Positions 11,026-31,197 of a stretch of DNA of 31,197 nt are shown here, piece after piece (within the stretch, counting starts at the first letter, position 1; each line of letters opens with the position of its first letter). Below the pieces are notes generated by a model that saw only the letters and a program-made list of their open reading frames with translations, did no database searches and was not told where the DNA came from. The stretch comes from a virus: the IMG/VR virus record IMGVR_UViG_3300048609_000070; one strand, written 5' to 3'. Position numbers and translations under genes: made by a program.

Positions 11026-11042
11026 TGGCGTAGATCCCAGTG

Positions 11043-15217: not shown

Positions 15218-15220
15218 GGT

Positions 15221-15907: not shown

Positions 15908-16421
15908 GGGCGTAACCGTAAAGTTGGTGTTTCTTCATGTAGTCTTCAAACTTTTTGTTTTCCTGGATGAGTTGGACATCGAGCTTCTGGATCTCTTTAT
16001 GCGTTGTCATATGCCCATTCTGGAGGAAACTGTAGAGGTAAGTGCTGCAAATATGCGAAATATGCGGCGTATTGACACCATTGAAGTATCGGTCGAATGC
16101 GCGATCGATGAATTCTTTATACTCTTTTTTTGTTATATTATTTTTAAGCATGAAATCTTCGATTCTCTGATAGGCACGAACGAGACTTCCCGACAGGTGA
16201 TATTCCTTGCGGTATCTGTCCTGGTACTGGTTGCAAAAATAATTATAAAAATCGAACGGCTTCCAATCATTGATACGCTTCATGTGCGTCCAAGCGCTGG
16301 TTTTATTGATATACATTTGCAACTTCTCATTCTGCTGGCGGACTTTGGCAAGGTAGGTTACAATATGCTGCTCAACGACGTCTGGATGGTGAAACCACGG
16401 AGCTACTCTCTTTTGAGCCAT
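15876..16421 (-). CDS. Hypothetical protein.
   Basis: 181-aa ORF with start/stop overlaps to both neighbours. No recognisable motifs. The overlapping 203-aa plus-strand ORF is antisense. Confidence 0.5.
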   Translation of the reverse strand: MAQKRVAPWFHHPDVVEQHIVTYLAKVRQQNEKLQMYINKTSAWTHMKRINDWKPFDFYNYFCNQYQDRYRKEYHLSGSLVRAYQRIEDFMLKNNITKKEYKEFIDRAFDRYFNGVNTPHISHICSTYLYSFLQNGHMTTHKEIQKLDVQLIQENKKFEDYMKKHQLYGYAHARQKTVTHL

Positions 16422-17932
16422 CGGGAACCCTCCAGGTTGAAGAAGTGTTTTTTTATTCGCATTTGTTTTATTACTGCACCCGTGATACTTTGATATATTT
16501 TTAACCTTGATCTACTCTGCCTCCGAAGGCATGGCCCATGATCGATGAAGTCCACTATAACACCATACTTCTTCCCTGCAGATGCCGTCAAAGATCGCAT
16601 TTTTTGAACCGTTGGAACCTGGCTCTTGAGTCCTTCCGCATTAATAACAATATCTAAACTAGGTAAATTCAGTCCTTCTTTACCTACTGTCCCAATGATG
16701 CAGTGTAACTTTTTTTCTTGCAACGCGGAATACACTTCCCGTCTTTGCTCAGTCGGAATTACTCCTTGTAGAAATATGCTATCAGGAATAAGATCTCTGA
16801 GGACTTCCCCGTGTGCTACCCTGTTGACAGTCACGAATACTGTCTTATTTTTCTTTTTAGCTTTGCTTACAAGCGTAGTAATAAAACGGTTCCTTGGAAT
16901 GTTCCCGACAATATTTGCTTCGTATTCATCCATGTAAGAAGACATAAAATTGGCGTACCATTCCACAGGAAGATCGAAAATATAGATAAAGGGTTTGGCA
17001 AGGCGTTTTTCTTTTACCAGAACATCATAGTTAACTTTGTTTACAATAGGTCCAATGGCAGCTTCTTCATTTAGTAAGCTCTCTTTTCTCGGTGTTCCGG
17101 AAAGACCTATTTTCAGGTACACGTTTCTAAATTCTCGCATCCATTGTCTAGAAATAGTTGCGTAGGAATGGTGGCACTCATCCAGAATAAGCATCTCCGT
17201 CCGTTGGATGCATTCTTTAATTTTGTAATTTCTTTCTAGGATAGCTCCAGATGATTTATATGTACCACGATTTCTTTTTGGAGCTCCAAAGACCGCGGCA
17301 AGTGCTTCATAACTGCTTACGATGACTTCTTCTGGTTCGTACCTTGATTCGGAGAACAGTCCAATTTTACGTCCACAGTGACTGGCAAGAGCTTGTTGTG
17401 TCTGAGCAACAAGATCTCTTTTAGAGGTAATGACCCAGATCGGTTGATGGTGATCAAGCTTATTTATTATTGCGCCAATAATGGCAGTCTTTCCTGACCG
17501 AACAGGCGCTTGGATAATTCCGTACCGATACTTGAGCGCCTTTTCTACAGCTTCTTTCTGAAAGGGAAGCAGCTTAAGATCACAGGCATGCACTTCGACA
17601 TCGTTGTACTTTGGAACTCTATCGAACTTCATTTCCACGTCGTATCCAAACGATTTCAAGATCTGCTCAATTCGGTAACAGCATCCTGTTGGCGCAACCT
17701 GCGTTTTGCTCATGAGACGGACTCGACCGTCCCATCCAAATTTCCTGTGTTGGGGTGTAAACTCAAACCCAGGCATCAAAAAAGACAGTTTGTACTGTAG
17801 CTCTTTAAGATGCTCCAAGGGAAGTCTTGGAGACACCTCGCACTGCACCGGCTCGATGTAGACGATAGCACGCATGATCGATACAATACTACAAGGCTGT
17901 TTCTGTTTCTTTCGGTTTGGACATCTCTGCAA
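16403..17932 (-). CDS. Superfamily-2 DExH helicase (ResIII/XPB-like) with an N-terminal accessory domain.
   Basis: LLPFQKEAV (Q-motif-like), APVRSGKTAI (motif I), LILDECHH (motif II), LSGTP (motif III), QKMRSLTASAGK (motif VI-like). Confidence 0.8.
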   Translation of the reverse strand: MQRCPNRKKQKQPCSIVSIMRAIVYIEPVQCEVSPRLPLEHLKELQYKLSFLMPGFEFTPQHRKFGWDGRVRLMSKTQVAPTGCCYRIEQILKSFGYDVEMKFDRVPKYNDVEVHACDLKLLPFQKEAVEKALKYRYGIIQAPVRSGKTAIIGAIINKLDHHQPIWVITSKRDLVAQTQQALASHCGRKIGLFSESRYEPEEVIVSSYEALAAVFGAPKRNRGTYKSSGAILERNYKIKECIQRTEMLILDECHHSYATISRQWMREFRNVYLKIGLSGTPRKESLLNEEAAIGPIVNKVNYDVLVKEKRLAKPFIYIFDLPVEWYANFMSSYMDEYEANIVGNIPRNRFITTLVSKAKKKNKTVFVTVNRVAHGEVLRDLIPDSIFLQGVIPTEQRREVYSALQEKKLHCIIGTVGKEGLNLPSLDIVINAEGLKSQVPTVQKMRSLTASAGKKYGVIVDFIDHGPCLRRQSRSRLKIYQSITGAVIKQMRIKKHFFNLEGSRWLKRE

Positions 17933-18722
17933 CTTTCCTTCGCAAAACCTTGAGGTTATGACGACGGAGGGAATCCAGGCCCAAGTTTAGTTCTTTGAAC
18001 GTGGTACGATGGTGGTGAAAAACAAAGGTCTCTAAACTTAACATTAGTTTATACCCGTGGAAGCGCAGCCGGTGACAATACTCGTCATCGTCACCCAGTC
18101 CAATAGACATTTCCTCACAGAGAAGACCAACTTTATTAATTGTGTCCCTGCGGAAAGCACAGCAAAAGAATGAGAGAGGGAAAATACCGACGTCAAGGTA
18201 GCGCCCAGGAAAAGCAGCTTCAAGCTTTTTTACATAATGATCTACATTTTTTTCATAAATTGGAACCTTGAGTTTTGGCCAATGAACATTGAGGTTTCTT
18301 CCTTCTTGCCAAGAGATCCGACTCTGCGTGACCGGGCCAACGGCACCGACTTTAGGATCCGCAATGAGGGGCTTGATGAGTTTACTTTCCCACTTGTAAG
18401 TAACCTCGGTATCGTTGTTTAGTAAAATAATGTAGTCGCCTTCTGCTTCCTTGATCCCTTGGTTGGTTGCCTGGATAAAACCCAGGTTCCTGGAGTTCCG
18501 GATAAGTTTACAGTGAACTCTTGGCTTGTGAATCTGGTGTTTAATGGCGCTGACATTATCCGGGGTGGATCCGTTGTCTACCCAGATGATCTCGTGTGGG
18601 ATCTTAGTTCCCGATCGAATGGATTGGAGACACCGGATCGTCATGCCCGATTGGTTGATGACAGGAATGACGATGGAAATCATTGGCTTGAAACCATCTT
18701 TATACATGTTTCGGATTCCCAT
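17889..18722 (-). CDS. Family-2 (GT-A fold) glycosyltransferase.
   Basis: ISIVIPVINQ...WVDNGSTPD...LLNNDTEV (DxD-type) motifs. Confidence 0.75.
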   Translation of the reverse strand: MGIRNMYKDGFKPMISIVIPVINQSGMTIRCLQSIRSGTKIPHEIIWVDNGSTPDNVSAIKHQIHKPRVHCKLIRNSRNLGFIQATNQGIKEAEGDYIILLNNDTEVTYKWESKLIKPLIADPKVGAVGPVTQSRISWQEGRNLNVHWPKLKVPIYEKNVDHYVKKLEAAFPGRYLDVGIFPLSFFCCAFRRDTINKVGLLCEEMSIGLGDDDEYCHRLRFHGYKLMLSLETFVFHHHRTTFKELNLGLDSLRRHNLKVLRRKVAEMSKPKETETAL

Positions 18723-19437
18723 GTCTTCTTAGTTCCTGGTCCTTGAACATTCTCTGCTTTCTTGAGTCCACATTGCCCTTATGCTGTATCAGGTCCGTTG
18801 CATGAAAATAACCAATCCAGTAACCATGACGAGCAGCTGCTTTGCTGATCATGTAGTCTACTCCATATTTTACTCCGTGTGGGTGTCCCCCAACTTTCAA
18901 AAAGACATCTTTTTTGCAGAGTCGGCATGCACCATTGACTAGCCACCTGTCCGGGTGATAGCTCACATAGACGGTCTCGCTGCTTCGAAGAGGATAGGTC
19001 TTGCCTCTTTCCCCCGAGTAGAGCTTCTTTCCTGACCGAAGCGCAAAGGAGCTGGTCCTCCAGGGCATGTCCCAGCTCAGGAAAGCCAGCTTCTGCTCGT
19101 TGACTTCTTCGTATGCTTCAACAATCCTCTTTGCAAAATCCGGTGGAGGAAGTATGTCGTCATCGATCTTGATAAGGTACTTCCCTCTTGCTTTCCGTGC
19201 CAGGAAGTTTATAGCCTCGACACCATAGTTTACTTCAGAACTATGGATAAAAGACACGTTGGAGTTTAGGTTTTTGTAGTCACAGAGCCAATCGAAGGTT
19301 CCATCTTCTGAAGCATTGTCCCAAACTAAGATTTCATGCTTTATTTTGCCAGTGAGAATTCCAATGGCAGGAACGTATTCCGAGGAGATCTTTATTCGGT
19401 TGTGCGTAAGGATAAGCAGAGAAACGAGAGGTGCCAC
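18700..19437 (-). CDS. Family-2 (GT-A fold) glycosyltransferase.
   Basis: VSLLILTHNR...LVWDNASEDGT...KIDDDILPPP motifs. Confidence 0.7.
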   Translation of the reverse strand: MAPLVSLLILTHNRIKISSEYVPAIGILTGKIKHEILVWDNASEDGTFDWLCDYKNLNSNVSFIHSSEVNYGVEAINFLARKARGKYLIKIDDDILPPPDFAKRIVEAYEEVNEQKLAFLSWDMPWRTSSFALRSGKKLYSGERGKTYPLRSSETVYVSYHPDRWLVNGACRLCKKDVFLKVGGHPHGVKYGVDYMISKAAARHGYWIGYFHATDLIQHKGNVDSRKQRMFKDQELRRHGNPKHV

Positions 19438-19438
19438 A

Positions 19439-19996
19439 CTATTTGATCCCTTCCAAATTCAGGCTAATCAAAGTGCCATTTTCTTTATCCAGATGCGGAA
19501 GGTACGATTGAGAGTAGTCGTCAAAACCAGAGAGCTCTCCAGAGAAAACCTCTCTCCAGTTCCAAGGACGTACTGTAGAAAATTCTGCTTTATAAAGAAC
19601 CTCGCTTAGTTTTTCTTTATCGTAGATTGCTTTGTGATTGACGATAGTAGCTTTATCTATAGCCCAACGTCCATAAATCGGTCCTGATACGAGGCTGACC
19701 ATTTTATACTGCAAGTATACTTTTGCAAGCGCTTCAAAATCAGGAACGGCAAGTCGAAGAATGCCTTTTGGCTGTAATTTAGAGTGCCACTCGTGAAGAA
19801 CGAATTTGACCTCCTCATCGTCGAAATACTCAAGGACGTGAGAAGCGTAAATGATCTCAACCGATCCATTTTCGATCATGGGAAGCTGTCTCAGATCATG
19901 GACGAAATCTATGTGAGGGTAGTGACTAAGATCGATATGTTTATATCCTGGAAGGTATCGTTTTCCGCAACCGAGATGAAGTTTGATGTTTTCCAT
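19439..19996 (-). CDS. Class I SAM-dependent methyltransferase.
   Basis: Motif I LHLGCGKRYLPGY. Acidic post-I HIDL. VEIIYASHVLEYF motif. Confidence 0.6.
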   Translation of the reverse strand: MENIKLHLGCGKRYLPGYKHIDLSHYPHIDFVHDLRQLPMIENGSVEIIYASHVLEYFDDEEVKFVLHEWHSKLQPKGILRLAVPDFEALAKVYLQYKMVSLVSGPIYGRWAIDKATIVNHKAIYDKEKLSEVLYKAEFSTVRPWNWREVFSGELSGFDDYSQSYLPHLDKENGTLISLNLEGIK

Positions 19997-19998
19997 TT

Positions 19999-21072
19999 TT
20001 AGCTTTCAAAGAATTCGTTTATTTTTGTACAAACAAACAGGATTTGTTCTTCTGTGAGATCTAAGGAAGAGGGAAGCCACAAGCCTCTTGGTGCTATATT
20101 TTCTGCAACAGGGAGACAAGTTTTCGAGTCAAAGTATACAGGTTGTTTATGAATAGGCGGATAGAATGAACGGCTACTAATCTCAAAACCTTTTAGATGA
20201 TTGATAAGCTTGTCCCGTAACATTTCTGTTGGACATAGGATATCGACGAACCAAGGAACTTCTTCTTTATTCATTGGAGCAATCGTTACTTTTTTAGTAA
20301 GGTTCTTTGCATATGTTTCAAAGATCTGTCTTTTCTTTGCTTTTCTCCATTCAATACTTTTGAGTTGGGTTCGTCCAAGCACTGCTTGCAAATCTGTAAA
20401 CTTGAAATTGTAGCCCATAGACGTATGCCAGTCAACACCTGGAGCGGATCTTCCAAAATCTTTGATTTGGCGGATCCGTTCGTAGATTACTTTATTATTA
20501 GTAACGACCAGACCCCCTTGACCCGTTGTAATAATCTTGTGAGGAGTTAACGAATAAACGCCTACCAGTCCAAAGGTTCCAAGATATTGGCCATCCACGC
20601 AAGACCCAAATGCCTGGCATGCGTCTTCGATCAAGATAAGATCTTTGGCTTTGCAATACTGAACAATAGACTTTATGTCCCCGCTCCTTCCATTGAGAGG
20701 GACATAGAGTACCGCCTTACAGTATTTTGGCGGGTAGCAGCTAAGAACATCCATCGTGAAGTCATCTGACCGAATGTCCACGAGCGTTGGGAGAGCATAG
20801 GCCCACCGTACAGCATTTGCCGTGGCTATCATCGTGAGTCCAGGAACGAGGACGATATCTCCAGGTTGGATTCCACAGGCCAGAAGGGCCACATACAGGC
20901 CCACGGTGCCGCTCGTGACTGCCACGCAATAGCGCACCCCAAGATAGTTGGCAACGTCTTCCTCGAAGGCTGCTGTTTCTTTATGTTCTGTAAGCCATTT
21001 ATTGCAGCGCAGGTAGTCCGTGATGGCTGAAACTTCATCTTCTCCGTAGACAGGGTGGATTTGATCGATCAC
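19999..21072 (-). CDS. DegT/DnrJ/EryC1/StrS-family PLP-dependent sugar aminotransferase.
   Basis: DACQAFGS and SLTPHKIITTGQGG (PLP-binding Lys). The fold-type I pattern runs the full length. GTG start in a GTGA overlap with the upstream cupin stop. Confidence 0.85.
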   Translation of the reverse strand: MIDQIHPVYGEDEVSAITDYLRCNKWLTEHKETAAFEEDVANYLGVRYCVAVTSGTVGLYVALLACGIQPGDIVLVPGLTMIATANAVRWAYALPTLVDIRSDDFTMDVLSCYPPKYCKAVLYVPLNGRSGDIKSIVQYCKAKDLILIEDACQAFGSCVDGQYLGTFGLVGVYSLTPHKIITTGQGGLVVTNNKVIYERIRQIKDFGRSAPGVDWHTSMGYNFKFTDLQAVLGRTQLKSIEWRKAKKRQIFETYAKNLTKKVTIAPMNKEEVPWFVDILCPTEMLRDKLINHLKGFEISSRSFYPPIHKQPVYFDSKTCLPVAENIAPRGLWLPSSLDLTEEQILFVCTKINEFFES

Positions 21073-21099
21073 AGTAATTCTCTTTCTTCGTCATCATTA
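21066..21099 (-). repeat. 34-nt direct repeat, copy A (cgatcacagtaattctctttcttcgtcatcatta), at the 3' end of cupin paralog 1.
   Basis: 33/34 identical to copy B. The surrounding gene sequence is only ~60% identical. Confidence 0.7.
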
Positions 21100-21476
21100 T
21101 CTACTTCATAAGGTCCGGGTTTCACCTCTAGTAATTTAGTTTCATTAGCACGCACGGTATAGCCTACTCCACCATTGTATAGTATGTAGAACTCTCCAGC
21201 TTGTAAATTTCGTGTGTCTACCAGGGTCTTACCTTTCTCTGAAAATGTACGAACTTCTACTGATCCTTTGAGTACAATAAGTATCTCTTCCGTCTTGTTT
21301 ATTTGACGTTTACGTTCTATGTGTCTATGATCTCGCAGGATCTTTCCAGAATTATACCAGAATGCTCCAACTTGAATAGCATTTTTTTTCGATCCATAAA
21401 AGGTTAGTCCCGGCTCAAAATTATTTATATCATCTACGATAGCAAGCAATGTCCCTTTGTGTTTAATTTCTTGCAT
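21069..21476 (-). CDS. Cupin-fold sugar-nucleotide ketoisomerase-like protein (FdtA/QdtA/WxcM C-terminal-domain family), paralog 1.
   Basis: 135 aa. HRHIERKRQ...ILIVLKGSVEV cupin His motif. About 50% identical to the C-terminal domain of the next gene, with an identical ...NDDEERELL C-terminus. Confidence 0.65.
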   Translation of the reverse strand: MQEIKHKGTLLAIVDDINNFEPGLTFYGSKKNAIQVGAFWYNSGKILRDHRHIERKRQINKTEEILIVLKGSVEVRTFSEKGKTLVDTRNLQAGEFYILYNGGVGYTVRANETKLLEVKPGPYEVDNDDEERELL

Positions 21477-21575
21477 TTGTTTCTTCCTCCATGACGCTCG
21501 CTACCATTTCATCTACGATCTGTGGCAATTTGATCTGAGGTTCCTTCTTATTCCCATTAAGAAGAACATACCCGA
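21477..21575 (-). pseudogene. Degenerate relic of a GDP-mannose dehydratase 3' end, sitting between the fusion gene and cupin paralog 1.
   Basis: On the minus strand it translates open as ...NGNKKEPQIKLPQIVDEMVASVMEEETNARN*. Compare the intact GMD C-terminus GWEPKTKIQDLIDEMVRSVMLEEQNS*. Its stop overlaps the following cupin start, exactly as in the intact GMD/next-gene junction. Confidence 0.5.
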
Positions 21576-21596
21576 TCACAGTAATTCTCTCTCTTC
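21563..21596 (-). repeat. 34-nt direct repeat, copy B, at the 3' end of the cupin domain of the fusion gene.
   Basis: cgatcacagtaattctctctcttcgtcatcatta. One mismatch to copy A. Confidence 0.7.
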
Positions 21597-22538
21597 GTCA
21601 TCATTATTTACAATGAATGGTCCATTCTTTATTTCTAGCATGCGTGTATCATCTTCTAATACGGTAAATCCTACTCCTCCATTATACGATACATAGAAGC
21701 TTCCAGCTTTTAGTATTCTGGTATCTATCAGATCTTTCCCAGTTGGTGCAAATGTCCGTGCTTCGCAGGATCCTTGCATTACAATTAATATCTCTTGAGT
21801 TTTTTTCGCGATTCGTTGCCGTTCAATATGTCGATGGTTTCTGAGAACTTTTCCTTTACCATAACAAAATTGTCCTACTTGGATGTTATCCTCGCGTTTT
21901 CCGTAAAATGATAATCCAGGTGCAAAGTTTTTTATATCATCTATGATTGCCAGTAACACGTCTTCGTGAACGATTTCGATTATTGGGCTAGACACATCTT
22001 TCTCTTTCGGTTTAACTAAAAATACATCCTGTTTTCTAGTTCCATCTTTGTTAAAAGGATCATTAATAATTCCCCTGATTTCAATCTTTTTGTTATATTT
22101 TTTACAAATGGTTATTAAGTTCTTCTGCATGACATCGTAAGTTGCTATAATTTTATTATAGTTAGGATCGGTAATATGGAAATATGTAAAATAAAAGCTA
22201 TCAAAGTTTTGTAGCACATCATTAATAAATTTGACTGGGTTGTCCAGATACTCTAGCAAACCTAGCGCTATGGCAATTCTTTGGGACTGTTCTCCTTTAA
22301 ACTCAGATGGGAATTTAGTATTTAAATCGTAGAATATCACAGTATCGTTCTGTTTAACCATGTCAATCCCAAAGTATTGTTGACCGCTAAGACATTTCTG
22401 TATTTCGCAAAAGCCACAACCAAAGTCATAAACGTATTTATATGAAAGTCTATTTATTAACTTTGCAAAGAATTCAGCTCTATACTTCCATATTTCTGCA
22501 TGTGACATTATTTTTCCTTTACGAATTTTGCTCCTCAA
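21576..22538 (-). CDS. Fusion protein: N-terminal class I SAM methyltransferase plus C-terminal FdtA-like cupin ketoisomerase domain (paralog 2).
   Basis: N-terminal VYDFGCGFC (motif I), GIDM, IAIALGLLEYL. The C-terminal ~135 aa align to the upstream cupin including the HRHIERQR motif and the NDDEERELL end. The start may be the second Met (11-nt overlap with gmd). Confidence 0.65.
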   Translation of the reverse strand: MRSKIRKGKIMSHAEIWKYRAEFFAKLINRLSYKYVYDFGCGFCEIQKCLSGQQYFGIDMVKQNDTVIFYDLNTKFPSEFKGEQSQRIAIALGLLEYLDNPVKFINDVLQNFDSFYFTYFHITDPNYNKIIATYDVMQKNLITICKKYNKKIEIRGIINDPFNKDGTRKQDVFLVKPKEKDVSSPIIEIVHEDVLLAIIDDIKNFAPGLSFYGKREDNIQVGQFCYGKGKVLRNHRHIERQRIAKKTQEILIVMQGSCEARTFAPTGKDLIDTRILKAGSFYVSYNGGVGFTVLEDDTRMLEIKNGPFIVNNDDEERELL

Positions 22539-23490
22539 GCATTACTGAACGCACCATTTCATCTATGAGATCTTGAATCTTAGTTTTTGGTTCCCAGCCT
22601 AGAACTCTTTTTATTTTTTCTGGGTTACCTAGCAATTCAGGAACTTCTTTTGGACGTTTATAACGGTCTTCTATCCTTACATATTTTTTCCAATCTAAGC
22701 CAAGATACGCAAAAACTTTTTCTAAGAACTCTTTTACAGAGTAGCATTCCCCTGTTGCAACAACAAAATCATCTGGAACCGAGTGCATTATTATTTTGTA
22801 TACAGCTTCCATATATTCCTTGCTTGAACCCCAATCTCTTTTTGCTTCTAAATTACCTAATGTAATATCTTTTTGTTTTCCTAGTTTTATCCGTACTGCA
22901 GCCCTGACTATTTTCTTCTCTACAAATGTCTCCCCACGTCTTGGTCCGCAATGATTGAAAAGGATTCCATTCGATGCAAACAATCCATAGCCATCTCTAT
23001 ATGTACGAACCATCCAGTACGCCGCGAGTTTTGCAATACCGTAGGGGCTACATGGAACAAATTGAGTATTTTCGTTTTGTGGCGGTGGTGACATTCCAAA
23101 TTGTTCACTCGAAGATGCATGATAAATTCTTACCTTGTTTTTCCATCCTAAATTTCTAATAGCTTCAAGAATACGAGTTGGACCAACTGCATTGGTATCC
23201 ATTGTATAGATAGGAACATCAAAGGATACCCGCACATGACTCATTGACGCCATATTAAAAATTATATCTGGATTTATATCATGTAGGACCGTTTCAATAT
23301 TTCCTGTAAGATCTCCATAAACAAGTTTTATTTTTTCAGTAGGAAGAAGCAGATGATCAATTCTTGTGGTATTTATAGAACTAGATCTTCGGACGATTCC
23401 GTATACCTCATAGCCTTTTTCTAGTAGCAGCTCAGCTAAGTAGCTTCCATCTTGGCCATTAATACCCGTAACGAGCGCACGATTAGTCAT
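22519..23490 (-). CDS. gmd: GDP-mannose 4,6-dehydratase.
   Basis: ALVTGINGQDGSYLAELLLEKGYEVYGIVRRSS N-terminus. SSSEQFG, YGIAKLAAYW (YxxxK), and ILFNHCGPRRGETFVEKKI (the GMD NHESPRRGETFVTRKI box). Confidence 0.9.
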   Translation of the reverse strand: MTNRALVTGINGQDGSYLAELLLEKGYEVYGIVRRSSSINTTRIDHLLLPTEKIKLVYGDLTGNIETVLHDINPDIIFNMASMSHVRVSFDVPIYTMDTNAVGPTRILEAIRNLGWKNKVRIYHASSSEQFGMSPPPQNENTQFVPCSPYGIAKLAAYWMVRTYRDGYGLFASNGILFNHCGPRRGETFVEKKIVRAAVRIKLGKQKDITLGNLEAKRDWGSSKEYMEAVYKIIMHSVPDDFVVATGECYSVKEFLEKVFAYLGLDWKKYVRIEDRYKRPKEVPELLGNPEKIKRVLGWEPKTKIQDLIDEMVRSVMLEEQNS

Positions 23491-23493
23491 TCT

Positions 23494-24246
23494 TTACCTC
23501 GATCCCCAGTTTTGTTCAAGATTTGCAACAAGAACAAATTTCTTTGCCATATCCTGAAACATATATTCATTCCTTAACCGGTATTCCTTATTGAAGTACG
23601 CTTTATCCCTTGAATGCGGAAGGTGAACCATCGAAGTTACATTATTTATTCGTACTTCTTGGTATCCACAATATTGTGCCCGGATAAATAGATTCTTGTC
23701 TTCAAATCCCCAGCCAATATATCTTTCGTCGTGGCCATGCACATCTATAAGCCAATTTCTATCTAAGGCATTACAACACCCTTCTCCATGCGGAGGTTTC
23801 TTAGCTTTTTTTGCAAGATCCAACAATACTTTGTATGTCTCATTCGTATATGTTTTTGGTTCTACACCTGATGGAAGCCCGTACAAGAAATATGTATAGC
23901 ACATTACGAATGATTTATGAGTAACGACTTTTTTATAAACTTCTAAAAAGAAATTAGGAGCAAAAATTTGATCTGCATCTGTCATACAAATGTATGTTGT
24001 TCTTGCTTCTTTTATGCCAATATTTAACGCACGTGTTTTATGAAAAATAGCTGTATTTCTGTCTACCCGCACAACTTTGACCCATGGGTATTCTTTTACA
24101 ACAACTGGAGTGCTACTTCCAAAATCCACAATGAGTAATTTTGGACGAGGAACGCATAAAGAAATAGATTTTATGCAAAATTCAAGATTTAATCTCCGAT
24201 CTTTGCATGCAATAACTGCAGTCAAATCTAGATCATTTAAATCCAT
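23494..24246 (-). CDS. GT-A-fold glycosyltransferase (GT2/GT7-like).
   Basis: ICMTDADQIF DxD motif. C-terminal IGWGFEDKNLFIR resembles the WGxEDxD box of galactosyltransferase-like GT-A enzymes. Confidence 0.65.
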   Translation of the reverse strand: MDLNDLDLTAVIACKDRRLNLEFCIKSISLCVPRPKLLIVDFGSSTPVVVKEYPWVKVVRVDRNTAIFHKTRALNIGIKEARTTYICMTDADQIFAPNFFLEVYKKVVTHKSFVMCYTYFLYGLPSGVEPKTYTNETYKVLLDLAKKAKKPPHGEGCCNALDRNWLIDVHGHDERYIGWGFEDKNLFIRAQYCGYQEVRINNVTSMVHLPHSRDKAYFNKEYRLRNEYMFQDMAKKFVLVANLEQNWGSR

Positions 24247-25246
24247 TTTCTGAAAGGACGTTCAGTAATTGTCTAGCACGGTTTTGGTAAGTATGACTTT
24301 TAAGAGTTTTTACTCTGCCATTAACCCCAATCCGTAATCTTTCTTCTGGTCTTGCCATGTAATATTTTGCTTTTTTTACAAAGTCATTACAATCATCAAA
24401 AAAAACTACATCCTTCTCATTCTCAAATACTTTCTCAAGCCCTGGATTTTTGTCCAGCATGAGAAATCCTGCAACACCCATTATAATAGGAACTCGGTCA
24501 TTCAGATACATATCTGCTTTTATAACATGATTAGACATATTTATTCTTGAACGGCAATAATGTTCATGAACAGTTGTCCATAATGTTTCTCCTTTATAAT
24601 ACTGCGATAGTAAAGAACTTCCAGAAATAAAAGGTTTTCCATTCCTTGCAATTGTTTTGTCCGCTACCCAAAGATGATTACCATATAGCTCTATGTTTTT
24701 TATTCCTTCTCTGATAAGACCGAATACGGCGTCTTTTCTTGCCATTTTTGTACACACATAGGGTGTTCCAACAAATACGAAGTCCACTTTATCTTCTTCT
24801 TTGACGTATGTATATTGTCTCGCCGAGCTGTCAAAAGCAGGCCAAAATAAGTATGGTTTGAGACCGACTTTCGTATAAGATGGGAATGACTCTTTCGCAC
24901 ATGTTAGCGCAATTCTGAATCCGGCATACAAATGATTACTCATGAATGCTGGTACAAAAAATGGATCATCTTGTGACCAATAAACAGACATTCCAACATT
25001 TTTATTTATCCATTTTGCTATTTCAAGGTCTATTTTGAATTTAGGTTTTAATGCTTTTGTAGCGAAATAAACATCTGGTTTTGTTCTAATTATTTCTTTC
25101 TTAAGGACTTCACTGTACTTTTTTCCTCCGTCTTTACAATCCAAATAATGTAACCATACAGCATTATGATCAAGAACTTCATGACCCATTGTCTTTAGTG
25201 TACTTACCATTTCTGGGTAAGATCCACCATTAAAGAAAAATTTCAC
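24233..25246 (-). CDS. CgeB-like (Glyco_trans_1_2 family) glycosyltransferase.
   Basis: C-terminal ...VFFDDCNDFVKKAKYYMARPEERLRIGVNGRVKTLKSHTYQNRARQLL matches the CgeB-family signature (...HTYxxR...). Soluble, no transmembrane segment. Confidence 0.6.
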   Translation of the reverse strand: MKFFFNGGSYPEMVSTLKTMGHEVLDHNAVWLHYLDCKDGGKKYSEVLKKEIIRTKPDVYFATKALKPKFKIDLEIAKWINKNVGMSVYWSQDDPFFVPAFMSNHLYAGFRIALTCAKESFPSYTKVGLKPYLFWPAFDSSARQYTYVKEEDKVDFVFVGTPYVCTKMARKDAVFGLIREGIKNIELYGNHLWVADKTIARNGKPFISGSSLLSQYYKGETLWTTVHEHYCRSRINMSNHVIKADMYLNDRVPIIMGVAGFLMLDKNPGLEKVFENEKDVVFFDDCNDFVKKAKYYMARPEERLRIGVNGRVKTLKSHTYQNRARQLLNVLSENGFK

Positions 25247-25248
25247 TA

Positions 25249-26154
25249 TTATCTCCTAACTATGCTATTAAATAGCCTATAAAAAAAATTGAAAATGAAT
25301 TTTGGATCTGTATATTGCGTACATCTATTACTTAGATACCATGGCTGCCGTAACATATTGCAGTATGCTTTATCATCTCTATCTAAGGACACAACTTTTT
25401 CTATTAAATAATCATACATGTAATCATCGCTTTTAAAGTCCTTTCCAACAACGTTTACAAAGCTATTCATGTTAAAATCTTTATATACTTGTGGATTACC
25501 CCAGTATATTGGAATACTATTTGCTTGCATAGGATTGTAAATTTTTTCAGACGTGTACCCTACGGCAAATCTGTTCTCAAAAGAAATAGTAAATTTGAAC
25601 TGCTTTAAGTACTCAACTTTATCTATGTAAAAATTAGCACTAAGTCTAGAATCCATTGCGGTTTTGTGACCGCCAATTGGATCTGTATTTGTGCAGCATG
25701 GACCAGGCGAATGAACAAATTTGTACTTACTTAGTTTGTCAAAAAATATATTTCGATGTGGAACGCTGTGCCAATAGATAAATGCACAAAATTTTGTCTT
25801 TTGACTAAGAATTTTTTCTGGACTGTACGTTGGATCTTTTATTAAATCTGTACCTGCACCATTGAAAGTATAATTTGGAAAACGCAAGTAATTAGGTGAT
25901 TTTATTGTATCTGGATACTGCCAACCTAACGCCCACTCACAAGTAGACATTTTTGTTTGCATGTACTCACGTGCATAGGATATCCTAATACATTTTTCTC
26001 TTGGTGAATCTGTTTTTGAAAAGAAGATAACAAAATCAGGATTTTTTGACACGACAAATTTGAAGTTTGCTAGGACTTCTGGCATGTTCCTAAAAAAGTA
26101 TGCAGGGTCATCTACTTTACCACCAGCTCTAATTTGTATTTTTATTTCTTTCAA
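25249..26154 (-). CDS. GT10-family alpha-1,3-fucosyltransferase-like glycosyltransferase.
   Basis: KFTISFENRFAVGYTSEKIYNPMQANSIPIYWG matches the GT10 alpha-1,3-FucT motif (FxL/VxFENSxxxxYxTEK). Confidence 0.7.
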   Translation of the reverse strand: MKEIKIQIRAGGKVDDPAYFFRNMPEVLANFKFVVSKNPDFVIFFSKTDSPREKCIRISYAREYMQTKMSTCEWALGWQYPDTIKSPNYLRFPNYTFNGAGTDLIKDPTYSPEKILSQKTKFCAFIYWHSVPHRNIFFDKLSKYKFVHSPGPCCTNTDPIGGHKTAMDSRLSANFYIDKVEYLKQFKFTISFENRFAVGYTSEKIYNPMQANSIPIYWGNPQVYKDFNMNSFVNVVGKDFKSDDYMYDYLIEKVVSLDRDDKAYCNMLRQPWYLSNRCTQYTDPKFIFNFFYRLFNSIVRR

Positions 26155-26761
26155 TTTTTTCTCCTAGTATACAGTGTAACGCATACAAGTAAGCTTCATC
26201 TTTATGCAAAAATGCATAATCATAAGATTCTATTGTATTTATTCTTTTGTATAATGGCATTAGCATAAGTAAATGCTCATAAATTGACATAATTGGAAAA
26301 AAGTTAGATGTTGAGTTTATTTCATTTAAAAAAGTACCTATTGTTTTCTCACTTGGCATTCTACATGGGTGAGCTACACCATACTTTTCTTTGAATTTAT
26401 CTAACTGAAAAGCAGGCTCACCAAAAGGAAATACATGCACGATCATTCTTCTTGAAACTCTATAGGATTCCAGCAGGAATACGTGATGGTCTTCTACGTG
26501 TTCAAGCGTATCAATCGAGATAGCCGCATCAAAATTGTCATTTCTATAAGGTAATTTCAGACAGTTTATTGCTACAGAATTCGCATGGATATCACTATTA
26601 GCGTTTACTACGGTGCAATCCAAAAAATTATTAATTCTTCCTGTACCTCCCATGTCAATTACTGACATAGGTTTTATTTTTGTTAGTAGATCTGCAACGG
26701 AGTAGTGTACTACTGCTGCCACAACTGGAATATCTAGGATATTATTTTTGACACCTGTCAT
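26129..26761 (-). CDS. Class I SAM-dependent methyltransferase.
   Basis: SVIDMGGTGRI (motif I). NDNFDAAISIDTLEHV (motif II/III). Confidence 0.65.
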   Translation of the reverse strand: MTGVKNNILDIPVVAAVVHYSVADLLTKIKPMSVIDMGGTGRINNFLDCTVVNANSDIHANSVAINCLKLPYRNDNFDAAISIDTLEHVEDHHVFLLESYRVSRRMIVHVFPFGEPAFQLDKFKEKYGVAHPCRMPSEKTIGTFLNEINSTSNFFPIMSIYEHLLMLMPLYKRINTIESYDYAFLHKDEAYLYALHCILGEKIERNKNTN

Positions 26762-27684
26762 ATCATTTCCAAGAATTCTAAAAGTGTAGCTACTCTATTA
26801 GAAATATTGTGCATCTTACGTGTAATATCATACATGTTTTTTCCTATTTTTTCTCTAAGGAGATTATCTTTTAATAGATGGTCAATCTTAACCAACAAAT
26901 CTGATAGATCGTTATAGAAAATAATGTCTGAATTTACTCCTAAGATATCCCGTGCTTCTTTTCTATCTTTAGTTATAACAGGTGTTCCACATGCCATACA
27001 CTCGAACATTCTATGCGCGAGCGGTGAATTTTCTTGCTGTAAATCTAGACTAATTTTCGCACTGTTTATTTCTTTGATAAATTCTTGTCCTTCTAATTGA
27101 CCATATGATCGAATATTTTTCCAATTTGTTCCAAATATTTTTATCTTATAAGAAGGAAATTTTTTCAAGATATGATTCATCGTATTAATACGGTACGTTG
27201 CAGGAGTGAATCTGCTATGGAACCCTTGTCCGTATACTATTATATCAGTTGTTTTTTCCAAATTTATTTTTCTATGAAACGAAGTATCGCATGCTGTTGG
27301 AAAATAAAAAGTTTTGATTTTTTCTCGTGTATGTAAAAATGTGTTGTAGCAATTTGTGACGTAAATATTGTAATTAAGTAATTTATTCTCGTCCCATTCG
27401 TATGGATCTGAGAACCCAAAACCGAGAACACGCGATCCTAAATTATTAATATCGTGCAGCGTACAACCTGAGTATTGAGACCATGTATGCGCGATCCATA
27501 CGTCAGTAAACTTTTCCTTTTTTATGGTATTAAGAAGTTCAGATCCATCAATTATGTTTTTTTCTAAACTGTGGACATTTTTCCATTTAATAGAAAAATT
27601 ACGAGATTGCATTTCTTTAAAAATTGAACATTTAGTTCCGCAAACATTCTCTGCGTATGAGTCTGACAAATATAATATTTTCAT
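26758..27684 (-). CDS. GT4 (glycosyl transferases group 1, GT-B) glycosyltransferase.
   Basis: C-terminal E-x7-E-like region with ECMACGTPVITKD. Typical GT-B length. Confidence 0.75.
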   Translation of the reverse strand: MKILYLSDSYAENVCGTKCSIFKEMQSRNFSIKWKNVHSLEKNIIDGSELLNTIKKEKFTDVWIAHTWSQYSGCTLHDINNLGSRVLGFGFSDPYEWDENKLLNYNIYVTNCYNTFLHTREKIKTFYFPTACDTSFHRKINLEKTTDIIVYGQGFHSRFTPATYRINTMNHILKKFPSYKIKIFGTNWKNIRSYGQLEGQEFIKEINSAKISLDLQQENSPLAHRMFECMACGTPVITKDRKEARDILGVNSDIIFYNDLSDLLVKIDHLLKDNLLREKIGKNMYDITRKMHNISNRVATLLEFLEMI

Positions 27685-28178
27685 TCTCTGTACCTTATAA
27701 ACTTTGCTGGATTACCTCCAACAATAGCATTGTCTGGTACGTCATTGTTAACAACGGATCCAGCTCCTACTACAGCGCCAGATCCGATGACAACTGGACC
27801 AACAATAATCGCACCAGCTCCAATCCATGATCCATTTTTTATTTCTATTCTTCCTGGTATGTTATCCTGTTCAGCAATAGACTTTCCCTTTTTTATACCA
27901 TGATTTTGCGCGTATATTCCAACATTCGGAGAAATTAGTACAGTTTCTCCAATTACTACGTTACCAAGAGCATGTATAATTGTGTTCACTCCGAGAACAG
28001 AATCATTGCCTATTACTATTGTTCCGCTACAGGTACGAAGTATCACTCCAGGTCGAATTCGTACTCTATTCCCGATAATGATACGGCCTGAACCATTCTC
28101 CTCGAAGCCAAGATAAGCAGAGTTATCTATGGAGCATTTATCTCCTATTTTAATTTCTTTTAGCGTTTTGCTTATCAT
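27681..28178 (-). CDS. Left-handed beta-helix (hexapeptide-repeat) acyl/acetyltransferase, candidate amino-sugar N-acetyltransferase (FdtC/QdtC/PerB-like).
   Basis: Repeated [LIV]-G-x-x-x-x-I hexapeptides (IGNRVRIRPGVIL...IGAGAIIVGPVVIGSGAVVGAGSVV). Confidence 0.8.
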   Translation of the reverse strand: MISKTLKEIKIGDKCSIDNSAYLGFEENGSGRIIIGNRVRIRPGVILRTCSGTIVIGNDSVLGVNTIIHALGNVVIGETVLISPNVGIYAQNHGIKKGKSIAEQDNIPGRIEIKNGSWIGAGAIIVGPVVIGSGAVVGAGSVVNNDVPDNAIVGGNPAKFIRYRE

Positions 28179-28954
28179 TTTTTTCTAAATAAGTAATTGT
28201 TTATTTTGTAAAAGTTTTTAGATACAAGTGCATTACCATTTCTTTGCCAGCTGTGAACAGACTGCGAAAAATGCCCTGAAGTTGGTTTTACCATACTGCT
28301 TACCTCTAGCGACAACAAACCATCCGTAACCAAAGAATCACTTATACTATTGAACGATGCGATAGGATCCGCAATATGCTCTAGCACGTCTAGGCAGATA
28401 ACTGCATTGTACATATTTTTACATAAAATACTGTCTGGGTAAAAAAACGAATTTATTTTTATTTTTCTATTTGTTACCCGCCATTTTGCATAATTATACA
28501 ATGGACCATCCACGTCTAAAAGGTCTACAATAGCTCCCTTTTGGGAACAGTATATTCCATGACTACCTACGCCACAACCGTAATCTAAGATACGTTTATC
28601 CTTAAACCCACCAATATTCTTTTCCAAGTCTTTAATATAGCTGCTCCTTCTTTCAACTGTTAGCGTAGAAAGAGTCCTAAGATAATCGACGGTTTCGAGG
28701 TACACATATTTTTTGTATATGAACTCGTAAGATGATGCTTGAATGTCCTTGTCTTCATATAAACGAATAGATGCTGGAGATGCAATTGCAAGACTTTTTA
28801 TTTTAGAAATTTTCAATCCGGAATACAAGGATAGCTCGTAGTCTATCTCATCCTGTGTTTCTTGAAAAATATTGTTAGCCACGGTTGCTCTTCCCGCTAG
28901 ATAGAACAAACTCACGCATTTTCTTTTTGTTTCTTTCAAAAACTTCGTCATCAA
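28175..28954 (-). CDS. Class I SAM-dependent methyltransferase.
   Basis: KRILDYGCGVGSHGIY (motif I), DLLDVD, AVICLDVLEHIADP. The annotated start overlaps the radical-SAM gene by 80 nt, so the true start is uncertain (no internal ATG; possibly a non-ATG start). Confidence 0.7.
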   Translation of the reverse strand: MMTKFLKETKRKCVSLFYLAGRATVANNIFQETQDEIDYELSLYSGLKISKIKSLAIASPASIRLYEDKDIQASSYEFIYKKYVYLETVDYLRTLSTLTVERRSSYIKDLEKNIGGFKDKRILDYGCGVGSHGIYCSQKGAIVDLLDVDGPLYNYAKWRVTNRKIKINSFFYPDSILCKNMYNAVICLDVLEHIADPIASFNSISDSLVTDGLLSLEVSSMVKPTSGHFSQSVHSWQRNGNALVSKNFYKINNYLFRKK

Positions 28955-30212
28955 GATTCGTTAGCTTTATGAAAGAATCCCAATGATTCAACCCTGTGGG
29001 TCCCCACATATAGAAATTGTAATGATCAATATCTGTATCCGTAATACGGCAGGAAAAATTTGATGGGTGTTTTGATATTGCAGATCCAGGAATGGGAATA
29101 AAATTGGTAAGCGCAATTGTATCATAAGATTCTGGAATACTTTGCAAAAATTCAATGTTTCGGTCCGCAGTATCTTCCGTTTCACCTGGGGTTCCAATCA
29201 TAAATAATATACGTACAACCATTCCAGATTTCTTTGCATTTACAATTCCGTTATAATTATCCTGAACGCTATTTCCTTTTCTTAATATTTTTAGGACATT
29301 GGGGTCCGCGCTCTCAACACCAAAACTTACTTCTCTGCAACCAGACTCGTACATCTCTTTAAACATATACGTACTATTTGGGCGAGTTCTTATAGACGCA
29401 CGCCAAATGATGTCATATTTTTTTATTTCTTTGCATAAGCTACTCAAGCGTTTTGTATCCAAAGTAAGAGTATCGTCACTGAATCTAATTTGTCTTATCC
29501 TGTATTTACTTACAATTTCATCTATTTCTGCTATAACGTTCGATACACTTCTCATATAAACTTTACGGTTCCAGATACCAGGAGATGCACAAAATGAACA
29601 ATTATATGGACATCCTCGGCTTGTTATAATTACGCTACTTCCTCCACTTTTGTAGACTTTATTAAATGCAAAAATATTTCCACCTTTGTCGTTGATCATA
29701 TCTCTTGCTGGAAATGGAAGATTATCTAAGTCGGTTATACGCTGTGATTTATAATATTTACGTAAATTTGGATAATCGTTGATAACATCAAATATAATAC
29801 GTTCTCCTTCACCGGATATTATTGAATCTATTTCTTTATCTTGAATCAATTCTGGTGTTAGAGAAATCGGACCACCTAATATTACTTTACAATTATTATT
29901 AGAACTTTTTATTCTTTTAGCTACTTCAATACATGGGTTTCTATCAAGAACTGTACCCGTTATCCCATAAATATCCGCCAAAGGAAATTCAAATGGGTCT
30001 TCCCAGTATTTTGAGCTAAGATCGAGCAGCGTAACATCCATATTCTTTTCACGTAGAGATGCTGCAATGTACATTAACCCTAATGGAGCTTGCGCTGTGG
30101 GTTGCTTAAGATAAGCATGCGGTGGGTTAATCAAACAAATTTTCATTGCTGGTTTTTGAACCAATCTATAAAATTTTTTATACCAACTTTGAAATCTATT
30201 TTTGGAAACCAA
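28875..30212 (-). CDS. B12-binding-domain radical SAM enzyme (class-B radical SAM, candidate C-methyltransferase).
   Basis: N-terminal MKICLINPP...LGLMYIAASL Rossmann-like B12 domain. CPYNCSFCAS (CxxxCxxC) radical-SAM cluster motif. The real start is probably Met23 at 30146, which forms an ATGA overlap with the upstream epimerase stop. Confidence 0.8.
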   Translation of the reverse strand: MVSKNRFQSWYKKFYRLVQKPAMKICLINPPHAYLKQPTAQAPLGLMYIAASLREKNMDVTLLDLSSKYWEDPFEFPLADIYGITGTVLDRNPCIEVAKRIKSSNNNCKVILGGPISLTPELIQDKEIDSIISGEGERIIFDVINDYPNLRKYYKSQRITDLDNLPFPARDMINDKGGNIFAFNKVYKSGGSSVIITSRGCPYNCSFCASPGIWNRKVYMRSVSNVIAEIDEIVSKYRIRQIRFSDDTLTLDTKRLSSLCKEIKKYDIIWRASIRTRPNSTYMFKEMYESGCREVSFGVESADPNVLKILRKGNSVQDNYNGIVNAKKSGMVVRILFMIGTPGETEDTADRNIEFLQSIPESYDTIALTNFIPIPGSAISKHPSNFSCRITDTDIDHYNFYMWGPTGLNHWDSFIKLTNLDDEVFERNKKKMREFVLSSGKSNRG

Positions 30213-31087
30213 CCCAATAATTTTTTGGCTTTGCTAATTCCAGCATGCGTATGCACCATATCAGATAAAGGCATTTCTTCATTAATAATACTATAATTTT
30301 CTATGTCTAAATTGTAAGCAATTTCTTTTATTACATCTGCCAGAAATACTGGATTGCCGCTACCAAGATTTATAACATTAAATCCATTTGCTTTATCTCT
30401 TGCTAATATAATTCCATCAATGATGTCGCTTACATATGTATAATCTCGCGTAGTAAATCCATTTCCATAAACTGTAAGGGAATTTTTAGAAATTAATTCT
30501 TTTGAAAATCTGTGAATGGCAAGATCTGGTCGTTGTCTAGGTCCATAACAAGTAAATATACGAAGACAGGTAATATCTATCTTATAATTATTTGAGTACG
30601 CCCTGCACAAATCTTCTCCACAAGCCTTCGTTGCTCCATACACTGAAATAGGCTGTAGAAATAATTCTTCGTTGAATATCTTAGAATTGGTAGTTCCATA
30701 GACACTTGAAGAGGATGCAACGATAAGTTTTGTTTTTGAACTGGACAATTTAAGAATTGCATTCAGTGCTGAAATGTTGTTTTGTATAAACATACTTGAA
30801 TCTACAAAGGATTGACGAACTCCTGGAGACGCTGCTAAGTGGACAATGCTGTCTACATTTTCTAGCGTAGAAGAAAAATCTTTCGTAGGGATTTGTAATA
30901 TATCCTTAGTTATAAGATGGAAATTTTTATTTTTTAGCGCTCTCTGTAAATTTTTTCTTTTTATTTCTGGATCGTAAAAGTCATTGAAATTGTCAATTCC
31001 AATAACCTGTTCATTAATATCTAATAGATGATCCACAAGTGAAGATCCAATAAAACCAGCGCATCCTGTAACTAATGTAGTTTTCAT
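30143..31087 (-). CDS. NAD-dependent sugar-nucleotide epimerase (extended SDR, GalE/WbpP-like rather than a 4,6-dehydratase).
   Basis: VTGCAGFIGSSLVDHLL Rossmann motif. ASSSSVYG lacks the dehydratase DE pair. YGATKACGEDLCRAY (YxxxK). Confidence 0.8.
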   Translation of the reverse strand: MKTTLVTGCAGFIGSSLVDHLLDINEQVIGIDNFNDFYDPEIKRKNLQRALKNKNFHLITKDILQIPTKDFSSTLENVDSIVHLAASPGVRQSFVDSSMFIQNNISALNAILKLSSSKTKLIVASSSSVYGTTNSKIFNEELFLQPISVYGATKACGEDLCRAYSNNYKIDITCLRIFTCYGPRQRPDLAIHRFSKELISKNSLTVYGNGFTTRDYTYVSDIIDGIILARDKANGFNVINLGSGNPVFLADVIKEIAYNLDIENYSIINEEMPLSDMVHTHAGISKAKKLLGWFPKIDFKVGIKNFIDWFKNQQ

Positions 31088-31197
31088 TTATTTAGTAGAG
31101 CAAACGCGAGATTATGTACTTCCACGTGTTTTTTTTCATAATAGGCTATTTTTTCTTGCATTCTTTCTATAATTATATTTCTGTATTCTTCCAATAA

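Follow-up and report, generated by a model that had tools for sequence, protein, structure and literature searches.

A glycan-biosynthesis gene module held beside the replication genes in an uncultured lineage of large tailed phages

The genes considered here lie on a 31,197-nt stretch of one strand of the IMG/VR virus record IMGVR_UViG_3300048609_000070, which we call the window and to which all coordinates of open reading frames (ORFs) refer; they form a long array of predicted glycan-biosynthesis genes directly beside a replication module. All substantial ORFs of the window are on the minus strand, and so is every window gene named below. Positions 17889-31087 hold 16 consecutive ORFs, the number given in an earlier annotation made from the letters alone (hereafter the sequence-only reading), and these are tightly packed, neighbors overlapping or lying at most 3 nt apart with the sole exception of one 99-nt gap. 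The array continues past the window end: the last 37 codons of a further gene (31088-31197), whose stop overlaps the start codon of the sixteenth ORF, exit the window, and the upstream edge of the array is outside it. The array is co-directional with the replication genes, with no detectable terminator between them, and because a promoter and terminator scan of the window gave nothing above the shuffled expectation, transcription units are read here only from the gene packing. A repeat search of 17889-31087 found one notable repeat, a duplicated cupin.

Family assignments were made by Pfam and NCBIfam profile searches, and the Pfam search, which the sequence-only reading had proposed as a check, upheld most of its labels. 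Closest to the replication genes are two GT2 glycosyltransferases, at 17889-18722 (PF00535, 91 bits; GT-A fold) and 18700-19437 (PF00535, 47 bits), followed by a small S-adenosylmethionine (SAM) methyltransferase at 19439-19996 (PF08241, 23 bits), for which no solved-structure relatives were found, and by a pyridoxal phosphate-dependent sugar aminotransferase at 19999-21072, correctly recognized before as a DegT enzyme (PF01041, 283 bits). In a PDB search the best solved relatives of the aminotransferase were the GDP-perosamine synthases 3BN1 and 3DR4 (164 bits), and its Schiff-base lysine is present in the motif SLTPHKIITTGQGG; whether it would act at C4 or at C3 is not readable from the sequence. 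The predicted GDP-mannose 4,6-dehydratase (Gmd) at 22519-23490 was likewise confirmed (PF16363, 391 bits; TIGR01472, 396 bits against a cutoff of 415), with its catalytic SxE and YxxxK motifs intact (HASSSE and YGIAK). Both elements of a GDP-perosamine pathway are found, a Gmd with the catalytic Ser/Thr-x-Glu and Tyr-x3-Lys and a Per-type aminotransferase with its lysine, and together they would lead coherently from GDP-mannose to a GDP-4-amino-4,6-dideoxyhexose. An N-acetyltransferase of the PerB/PglD type was not found in the window, where the only left-handed beta-helix (LbH) protein best matches O-acetyltransferases.

Between the aminotransferase and gmd lie a stand-alone WbuC-like cupin (21069-21476; TIGR04366, 35 bits) and a fusion (21576-22538) of a faint methyltransferase-like N-terminal domain (E = 0.008) to a second WbuC-like cupin (residues 188-320) that is 62% identical to the first. 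The NCBIfam WbuC matches of the two, at 35 and 32 bits, are both under the 42-bit cutoff, neither cupin has a Pfam match at E <= 0.01, FdtA included, and the one copy searched against the PDB (21069-21476) gave no sequence match at E <= 1, so that the designation of the pair as FdtA-like ketoisomerases is unsupported. The stand-alone cupin is possibly a keto-sugar isomerase or epimerase.

Upstream of gmd the array holds a GT2 glycosyltransferase with a Glyco_transf_7C-like C terminus (23494-24246, 52 bits; 41-46% identical in six viral contigs), a CgeB-like glycosyltransferase of family PF13524 (24233-25246, 81 bits; 35-45% identical in relatives L089, L090 and L094), and a GT10 fucosyltransferase-like enzyme with a FucT_N domain (25249-26154; PF00852, 51 bits, and PF18025, 30 bits). 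Homologues of the last are 36-46% identical in L003, L136, L137 and L139, its paralogues are multiplied in relatives, and the GT10 family uses GDP-sugars. Next come a SAM methyltransferase (26129-26761; PF08241, 30 bits), a second CgeB-like PF13524 glycosyltransferase of GT-B type (26758-27684, 86 bits), the LbH hexapeptide acetyltransferase (27681-28178; PF00132, and the WcaF family at 77 bits), and a class I SAM methyltransferase with its domain at residues 107-219 (28175-28954; PF13489, 41 bits). The best PDB matches of the acetyltransferase are maltose and galactoside O-acetyltransferases, and its sequence resembles the sugar O-acetyl type, as opposed to the N-acetyltransferases of amino-sugar nucleotides. 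A B12-binding radical-SAM enzyme (28875-30212; PF04055, 84 bits, and PF02310, 41 bits) has PhpK-, HpnJ- and HpnR-type NCBIfam matches, all below cutoff, and is likely a C-methyltransferase; its true start is probably the ATG at 30146. The last complete gene encodes an extended short-chain dehydrogenase/reductase (SDR) of the dehydratase/epimerase type (30143-31087; RmlB/LegB/GalE-like; PF16363, 160 bits, PF01370, 151 bits, and TIGR01181, 153 bits, below cutoff), with a closest metagenome relative at 48% identity. The acetyltransferase, radical-SAM enzyme and SDR had all been named before, and the count of six glycosyltransferases holds as well (three GT2, two PF13524 and one GT10), the one labeled GT4 being the second PF13524 protein; among the four SAM methyltransferase domains proposed, three are clear and the fourth is the faint one fused to the cupin.

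This arrangement is shared by a whole lineage. A protein search with the window's DnaB gave a 100%-identical match on a 136,545-bp JGI contig and some 65 relatives, 41-57% identical, on contigs of up to 249 kb. Ten relatives are IMG/VR viral contigs; the IMG/VR relatives were found with an alignment-based query, single-protein DnaB and UvsW scans having given almost nothing. Our comparison of the module covers 12 loci, with annotated gene lists for part of the relatives, and in every one examined the glycan block stands immediately upstream of the UvsW-like helicase gene and in the same direction. The replication module begins with this helicase (16403-17932 in the window), a conserved anchor that bounds the glycan module. 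The adjacent GT2 gene was matched at all 12 loci (40-62% identity to the window) and its neighbor at all 11 loci that cover it (45-56%), while the corresponding figures are 12 of 12 for DnaB (42-55%), 12 of 12 for the helicase (37-45%), and 11 of 12 for PolA (37-54%). Since the identities of the two GT2 enzymes are close to those of the replisome, the two genes appear to be held by selection about as strongly. The helicase-proximal GT2 gene, often duplicated in relatives, has 432 metagenomic homologues, and its product is at most 28% identical over its full length to proteins of cultured phages.

Beyond this pair the content varies. The set of Gmd, cupin, aminotransferase, and small methyltransferase is present in about half of the relatives at 42-73% identity (64-73% for Gmd, 47-64% for the stand-alone cupin, 42-46% for the aminotransferase, and 54-58%, in six relatives, for the methyltransferase, which is conserved together with the set), and the remaining relatives have another amino-sugar set (SDR, hexapeptide transferase, DegT, and WbqC) or none that is recognizable. 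Farther out there are GT10 paralogues, GT4-type enzymes, polysaccharide pyruvyl transferase, and other radical-SAM enzymes in differing combinations, and the SDR and B12-radical-SAM genes of the window belong to this part. The module measures about 14 kb in L144, about 16 kb on a 184-kb contig, and more than 17 kb in L136 and L137. The helicase-proximal genes are thus a conserved lineage core and the distal genes the variable part, and the term island does not suit an array whose proximal end is a core module. With the module in the same slot in all relatives, glycosylation appears to be a fixed part of the life cycle of the lineage.

The variable part of the window seems to have been exchanged. 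The G+C content at third codon positions (GC3) is 0.38-0.54 in the replication genes (1363-17932) and 0.41-0.51 in the four helicase-proximal genes (17889-21072), and it is 0.22-0.34 in the 12 distal genes (21069-31087). No comparable GC3 step was seen in the relatives, several of which have an overall GC content of 0.35-0.37 within a range of 0.35-0.44. Near this step the 99-nt gap (21477-21575) is occupied by a 3' remnant of gmd, comprising the last ~27 codons and ending in EPQIKLPQIVDEMVASVMEEETNARN, and the stop of the remnant overlaps the cupin start exactly as that of intact gmd does in relatives. Upstream of the remnant are the complete gmd and the methyltransferase-cupin fusion, and the two cupins flank the remnant. 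Together the GC3 step, the remnant, and the duplicated cupin at the junction point to a cassette swap, the simplest reading being that a block from a lower-GC relative, ending in gmd and the methyltransferase-cupin gene, recombined in and replaced most of the resident gmd. Elsewhere in the lineage the same gene has an intein: the Gmd of L092 (L092:1262-3415) is 717 amino acids long and has a LAGLIDADG intein of ~370 residues inside its catalytic SxE motif, which marks gmd as a stably maintained phage gene. An intein in a phage sugar-nucleotide enzyme is itself unusual.

The replicon is a large tailed phage of an uncultured, previously undescribed lineage with contigs of 91-249 kb, an identity that follows from the viral-contig relatives, a terminase near the module, and near-absence from species genomes: among 185,579 species-representative genomes only one relative passed 40% identity, and its contig, free and 184 kb long, belongs to a metagenome-assembled genome (MAG). 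Together with the PHROG replication matches in the window, this bears out the earlier description of a phage-like replicon beside a replication module. Megablast of 25 kb against cultured phages gave no match, and DnaB is at most 25% identical to proteins of cultured phages (of Bacillus) and at most 26% to those of plasmids. Upstream of the module, the 91-kb relative encodes a terminase large subunit (phrog_17415, 203 bits) ~5 kb beyond the module edge, together with a phage metallopeptidase, a DNA methylase, a sugar nucleotidyltransferase, and a protein with a weak likeness to spanins, all divergent from the module. The metallopeptidase and methylase form the upstream edge of the module in L144, and that metallopeptidase is also at the edge in L135, there with a weak match to an Eco57I-type methylase. 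In L139 (IMGVR_UViG_3300018080_000117, 136 kb), not recovered by the IMG/VR DnaB scan, a terminase of the same PHROG family stands directly beside the glycan genes, with GT10 and GT2 genes directly upstream of it, and three of its head-module proteins share 30-38% identity with their counterparts in the 91-kb relative; the position of the module relative to the packaging genes therefore differs between sub-lineages. The weak spanin-like match and an affinity of the terminase to jumbo phages of Gram-negative bacteria are hints as to the host. Two comparisons were set aside: with Virus Rctr197k as a model, which has the nearest INPHARED terminase but is not syntenic and is poorly annotated, and with the moraphages (PMC12619734) as the lineage itself, which are defined by a family-B polymerase, versus a uracil-DNA glycosylase (UDG)-PolA fusion here.

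What the module does not contain bears directly on its function. A 19-residue Kyte-Doolittle scan of the 31 window proteins, a check that the sequence-only reading had called for, found no transmembrane-like segment, the hydropathy peaks being known soluble motifs of the LbH and DegT folds only. By Pfam and hydropathy there is no Wzx/Wzy, no ABC transporter, and no polyprenyl-phosphate initiating transferase of the WecA/WbaP type in the window. The relatives agree: among 378 ORFs from 17 of their loci, none inside the clusters has more than one hydrophobic segment, and membrane machinery was found within 10-20 kb of the module in no relative. The absence of flippase, polymerase, and initiating transferase noted before thus extends to the clusters of the relatives. 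The module cannot be called self-contained, however, because the array is cut by the window end at 31088-31197 and no sugar-1-phosphate nucleotidyltransferase is present in the window; it would also have to draw on the host for GDP-mannose and cobalamin. The 91-kb relative encodes a sugar-1-phosphate nucleotidyltransferase (170 bits) beside the terminase, outside the module, and a polysaccharide pyruvyl transferase within it (L156:12199-12945, L144:11713-12594).

On this evidence we favor, tentatively and with less than even confidence, the reading that a phage-made acceptor is glycosylated in the cytoplasm, most probably the proteins of the virion. Host GDP-mannose would be converted by the phage Gmd to GDP-4-keto-6-deoxymannose and by the perosamine-synthase-like aminotransferase to GDP-4-amino-4,6-dideoxyhexose, which the conserved cupin and small methyltransferase may tailor by isomerization or methylation, while the SDR at 30143-31087 would probably supply a second nucleotide sugar; sugar identity and step order are deduced from enzyme families. 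The six soluble glycosyltransferases, including the two lineage-universal GT2 enzymes, would build an oligo- or polysaccharide, to be decorated by the SAM methyltransferases, the B12-radical-SAM methylase, and the O-acetyltransferase. All steps would be cytoplasmic, and the acceptor would be capsid, tail, or decoration proteins. Swapping of the distal cassette between related phages through recombination in conserved genes such as gmd would then generate serotype-like diversity.

A phage-made acceptor is favored because no member of the lineage encodes a lipid-carrier, flipping, or export function. The spread of GC content among the relatives hints at different hosts, and dependence on the export system of each would be awkward. 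An exposed surface under diversifying selection would also be expected to show a conserved core and a swappable outer cassette, and virion targets have precedents in the fibrils of Megavirinae and in the capsid and tail tube of mycobacteriophages. The sequence-only reading had proposed cytoplasmic glycosylation, with the virion, DNA, and the host surface as candidate targets; with no export genes found, a cytoplasmic acceptor independent of the host is the most economical reading, and the virion, DNA, and the host surface are all still candidates.

Several points weigh against the virion as the target. The module is contiguous and co-directional with replication genes and not with late genes, an arrangement that would fit a DNA-directed function no less well and perhaps better. 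Glycosyltransferases acting on lipid-linked intermediates are also soluble, and the lack of membrane proteins is therefore compatible with use of a host carrier and host export. The flanks were to be searched, according to the sequence-only reading, for capsid, tail, or terminase genes; the terminase was found in relatives, and a capsid gene was identified in none of the lineage sequence analyzed. About 105 kb of the 136,545-bp source contig is outside the window, and the lineage is known here from genes and not from particles. Structure gives little guidance as to the acceptor. In an AlphaFold2 model of the helicase-adjacent GT2 enzyme (17889-18722; pLDDT, the model's per-residue confidence score, 93), the best Foldseek neighbors are polypeptide GalNAc-transferases, with the chondroitin polymerase K4CP scoring nearly the same and giant-virus and phage GT2 enzymes among the others; the GalNAc-transferase likeness is a weak acceptor hint, generic to the GT-A fold.

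The alternative that survives best is remodeling of the host envelope. Here the phage enzymes would build a sugar unit on a host lipid carrier at the inner face of the membrane, and the initiating transferase, flippase or ABC transporter, and ligase of the host would export it; we consider this unlikely, and equally so its proposed consequence, that an altered O-antigen, capsule, or wall polymer blocks adsorption of other phages or of progeny. The non-initiating glycosyltransferases of O-antigen synthesis are normally soluble, which keeps this explanation in play, and loci for surface polysaccharides typically have GT10, pyruvyl transferase, the WbuC cupin, and O-acetyltransferase of the WcaF type. 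Gmd is present in 258 phage records, and comparable clusters of P-SSM2, S-SCSM1, and S-SCSM2R have been read in this way (PMC1079782, PMC12801897), the usual view of cyanophage 'LPS' clusters. On the other hand, phage genes directed at the host surface are usually sporadic accessories, whereas this module is universal and syntenic with a core GT2 pair conserved like the replisome. The clusters of the relatives contain no initiating transferase, flippase, polymerase, ligase, or exporter, and if the relatives' GC range of 0.35-0.44 does reflect different hosts, the export machinery of every one of these hosts would need to accept foreign units.

Less probable again is hypermodification of DNA, in which the sugars, possibly amino-deoxy, would be put on a modified base, either as the DNA replicates or afterwards, and shield the DNA from host nucleases. 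The module abuts the replication genes, in the same direction, in every relative examined, and it is a core trait of the lineage, as DNA modifications usually are. The PolA of one relative is ~30% identical to that of SPO1-like Bacillus phages, its nearest cultured relatives, and SPO1-like phages are known for modified thymine. Polymerases and helicases also neighbor the phage GT-A enzymes that glycosylate 5-hydroxymethylcytosine, which are accompanied by epimerases and secondary glycosyltransferases (bioRxiv 10.1101/2023.12.21.572611). However, neither the window nor the Pfam-annotated loci of five relatives (at most ~32 kb each) contain a thymidylate-synthase homologue, a 5-methylpyrimidine dioxygenase, or a C5-methyltransferase, whereas the DNA glycosyltransferases described so far have such an enzyme no more than ~10 kb away, and a thymidine kinase is encoded by a relative. 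The top 50 Foldseek neighbors of the core GT2 model do not include TarP, to which the known DNA GT-A enzymes are homologous in the PDB, in a comparison where GT-A folds are very alike; we know of no solved structure of JGT. At least six glycosyltransferases with pyruvyl, acetyl, and methyl tailoring also exceed any known DNA glycan pathway.

The described DNA-glycan clusters (bioRxiv 10.1101/2023.12.21.572611; PMC13326640) resemble the module in having glycosyltransferases near replication genes, either GT-A or GT-B, and in some cases in having epimerases, secondary glycosyltransferases, and nucleotide sugars made by the phage (the UDP-arabinose of RB69). They differ in always pairing with a thymidylate-synthase homologue or dioxygenase, with a C5-methyltransferase sometimes nearby, and in being far smaller. 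That the DNA of this phage carries methylated amino-deoxy sugars from GDP-mannose, with the base-activating enzyme encoded elsewhere or of an unrecognized type, is in our estimate more doubtful still. Such an undescribed DNA glycan would account for the tie of the core glycosyltransferases to the replication module and for their replisome-like conservation; to our knowledge, no amino-deoxy sugar pathway acting on DNA has been described.

It is very unlikely that the module makes a free product, that is, a soluble glycosylated small molecule, a glycolipid, or a storage or decoy oligosaccharide serving, for example, as an inhibitor or signal. Sugar tailoring in natural products is marked by B12-radical-SAM methylases, DegT aminotransferases, and sugar methyltransferases (there are PhpK-, AprD4-, and KedN5-type matches), and the window is without clues to an acceptor, yet neither the window nor the annotated relatives have polyketide, nonribosomal peptide, terpene, or lipid synthases, and at least six glycosyltransferases imply a sizeable glycan. 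The last explanation, an ordinary bacterial surface-polysaccharide locus on a chromosome or plasmid with wzx, wzy, or wecA just outside the window, has in its favor that the closest named families of the enzymes belong to bacterial O-antigen and capsule pathways and that the contig of one relative was binned in a 'Candidatus Paceibacterota' MAG, but it is effectively refuted by the same module and replisome synteny on viral contigs of 91-249 kb, the terminase next to the module and the phage metallopeptidase at its edge, the Tad2-like, ribonucleotide reductase, and RtcB genes in relatives, the single match among the species genomes on a free 184-kb contig, and the lack of membrane machinery within 10-20 kb in any relative. 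The bacterial chromosome with neighboring wzx, wzy, and wecA genes that the sequence-only reading named as its own refutation was accordingly not what we found.

The proposed cytoplasmic glycosylation of virion proteins can be compared with known viral systems. Glycosylation machinery of this size was earlier called unusual, which overstates the case given the precedents: P-SSM2 has 24 genes in a glycan or 'LPS' (lipopolysaccharide) cluster (PMC1079782), S-SCSM2R has 22 cluster genes with 13 glycosyltransferases (PMC12801897), the moraphages have four core glycosyltransferase families (PMC12619734), and fibril glycosylation in Megavirinae is encoded by clade-specific clusters of 6-33 genes in a slot beside a conserved helicase (PMC10117803). 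The Megavirinae are similar in having a virus-encoded dehydratase and DegT-type aminotransferase for an amino-deoxy sugar pathway, clustered with glycosyltransferases (PMC10117803, PMC8456856), and also in methyl, acetyl, and pyruvyl tailoring, clade-specific content, the conserved slot beside a helicase, and independence from membrane export. They infect eukaryotes and use UDP-sugars (viosamine, bacillosamine, and QuiNAc), in contrast to a tailed phage with a predicted GDP-mannose-derived route; their capsid-fibril target is proven and ours putative, and the sequence relationship is limited to shared families.

The cyanomyovirus clusters likewise belong to large phages and have Gmd (~52% identical), epimerases, GT2, GT10, and DegT-type enzymes, and in their case also GT11; those phages are lytic, and the function of their clusters is predicted only, as it is here. 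Their lineage is unrelated, with a T4-like PolB compared to the UDG-PolA of the window, and their cluster is an accessory that P-SSM2 has and P-SSM4 is without, in contrast to a universal module with a fixed position and a cassette swap. Mycobacteriophages use their own glycosyltransferases to modify capsid and tail-tube proteins (Freeman et al. 2023, as cited in PMC12619734 and PMC11256854). As described in these citing papers, soluble phage glycosyltransferases and methyltransferases act in the cytoplasm on virion subunits, the mechanism favored here, with sets of 2-4 unrelated proteins, no nucleotide-sugar pathway, and sporadic distribution among phage clusters.

Cellular parallels show the same family content. 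The Bacillus spore-crust (sps/cge) and flagellin islands are all-soluble and glycosylate a protein assembly from the cytoplasm without Wzx/Wzy, combining CgeB-type (PF13524) and GT2 transferases with DegT aminotransferases, acetyltransferases, and methyltransferases. They are cellular, and make legionaminic or pseudaminic acid and rhamnose; the likeness is one of family content only. New in the present lineage is a fixed module between packaging and replication genes, with a core GT2 pair conserved like the replisome, cassette replacement, and no membrane components.

Large glycan clusters of phages have for the most part been regarded as 'auxiliary' genes, optional and taken from hosts, whereas here the cluster is a fixed, syntenic part of a lineage. 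A conserved core with an exchanged outer cassette resembles the variation of bacterial O-antigens and of giant-virus fibril coats, and the pattern implies that glycosylation is both obligatory and diversifying for a tailed phage during its life cycle. The question of the acceptor dates to the first cyanophage 'LPS' clusters in 2005. Gmd, the Per-like aminotransferase, and the core GT2 pair are small and soluble and so could be expressed for identification of the sugar and the acceptor.

The rest of the window is taken up by the replication and recombination module (1363-16421), which encodes a DnaC-like helicase loader, DnaB, a primase zinc ribbon, an acidic sigma-like protein, the UDG-PolA protein, RecA, SbcD, and SbcC. 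PolA (8083-11025) is a UDG-exonuclease-PolA fusion with a mini-intein, of 980 amino acids versus 836 in relatives, and RecA (6069-8096) also has an intein, giving 675 amino acids versus ~348; both inteins are absent from the relatives examined. In the 184-kb relative, IS605-type TnpB/OrfB transposase genes have inserted at two places, between PolA and RecA and upstream of the glycan module (L005:14905-16044, L135:541-1680). Downstream of SbcC the relatives have a class II ribonucleotide reductase, thymidine kinase, a Tad2-like anti-defense protein, RtcB, and NADAR, and PHROG annotation of this region in L145 gave no convincing match to structural genes. At the position of the reductase the window has two small genes (491-1306) that are low in GC (0.35-0.37) and lack counterparts in relatives, perhaps another site of variation. 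Genes on the minus strand are cut by both window ends (1-507 and 31088-31197), the plus-strand ORF listed at 16-471 probably just shadows the gene at 1-507, and there are no tRNA genes in the window. The acidic protein (11043-13307) has 754 residues, with a weakly sigma-factor-like N terminus, a nearly pure Asp/Glu tract of ~200 residues, Lys-rich repeats, and a small C-terminal domain, and its counterparts in relatives are 446 to 587 amino acids long.

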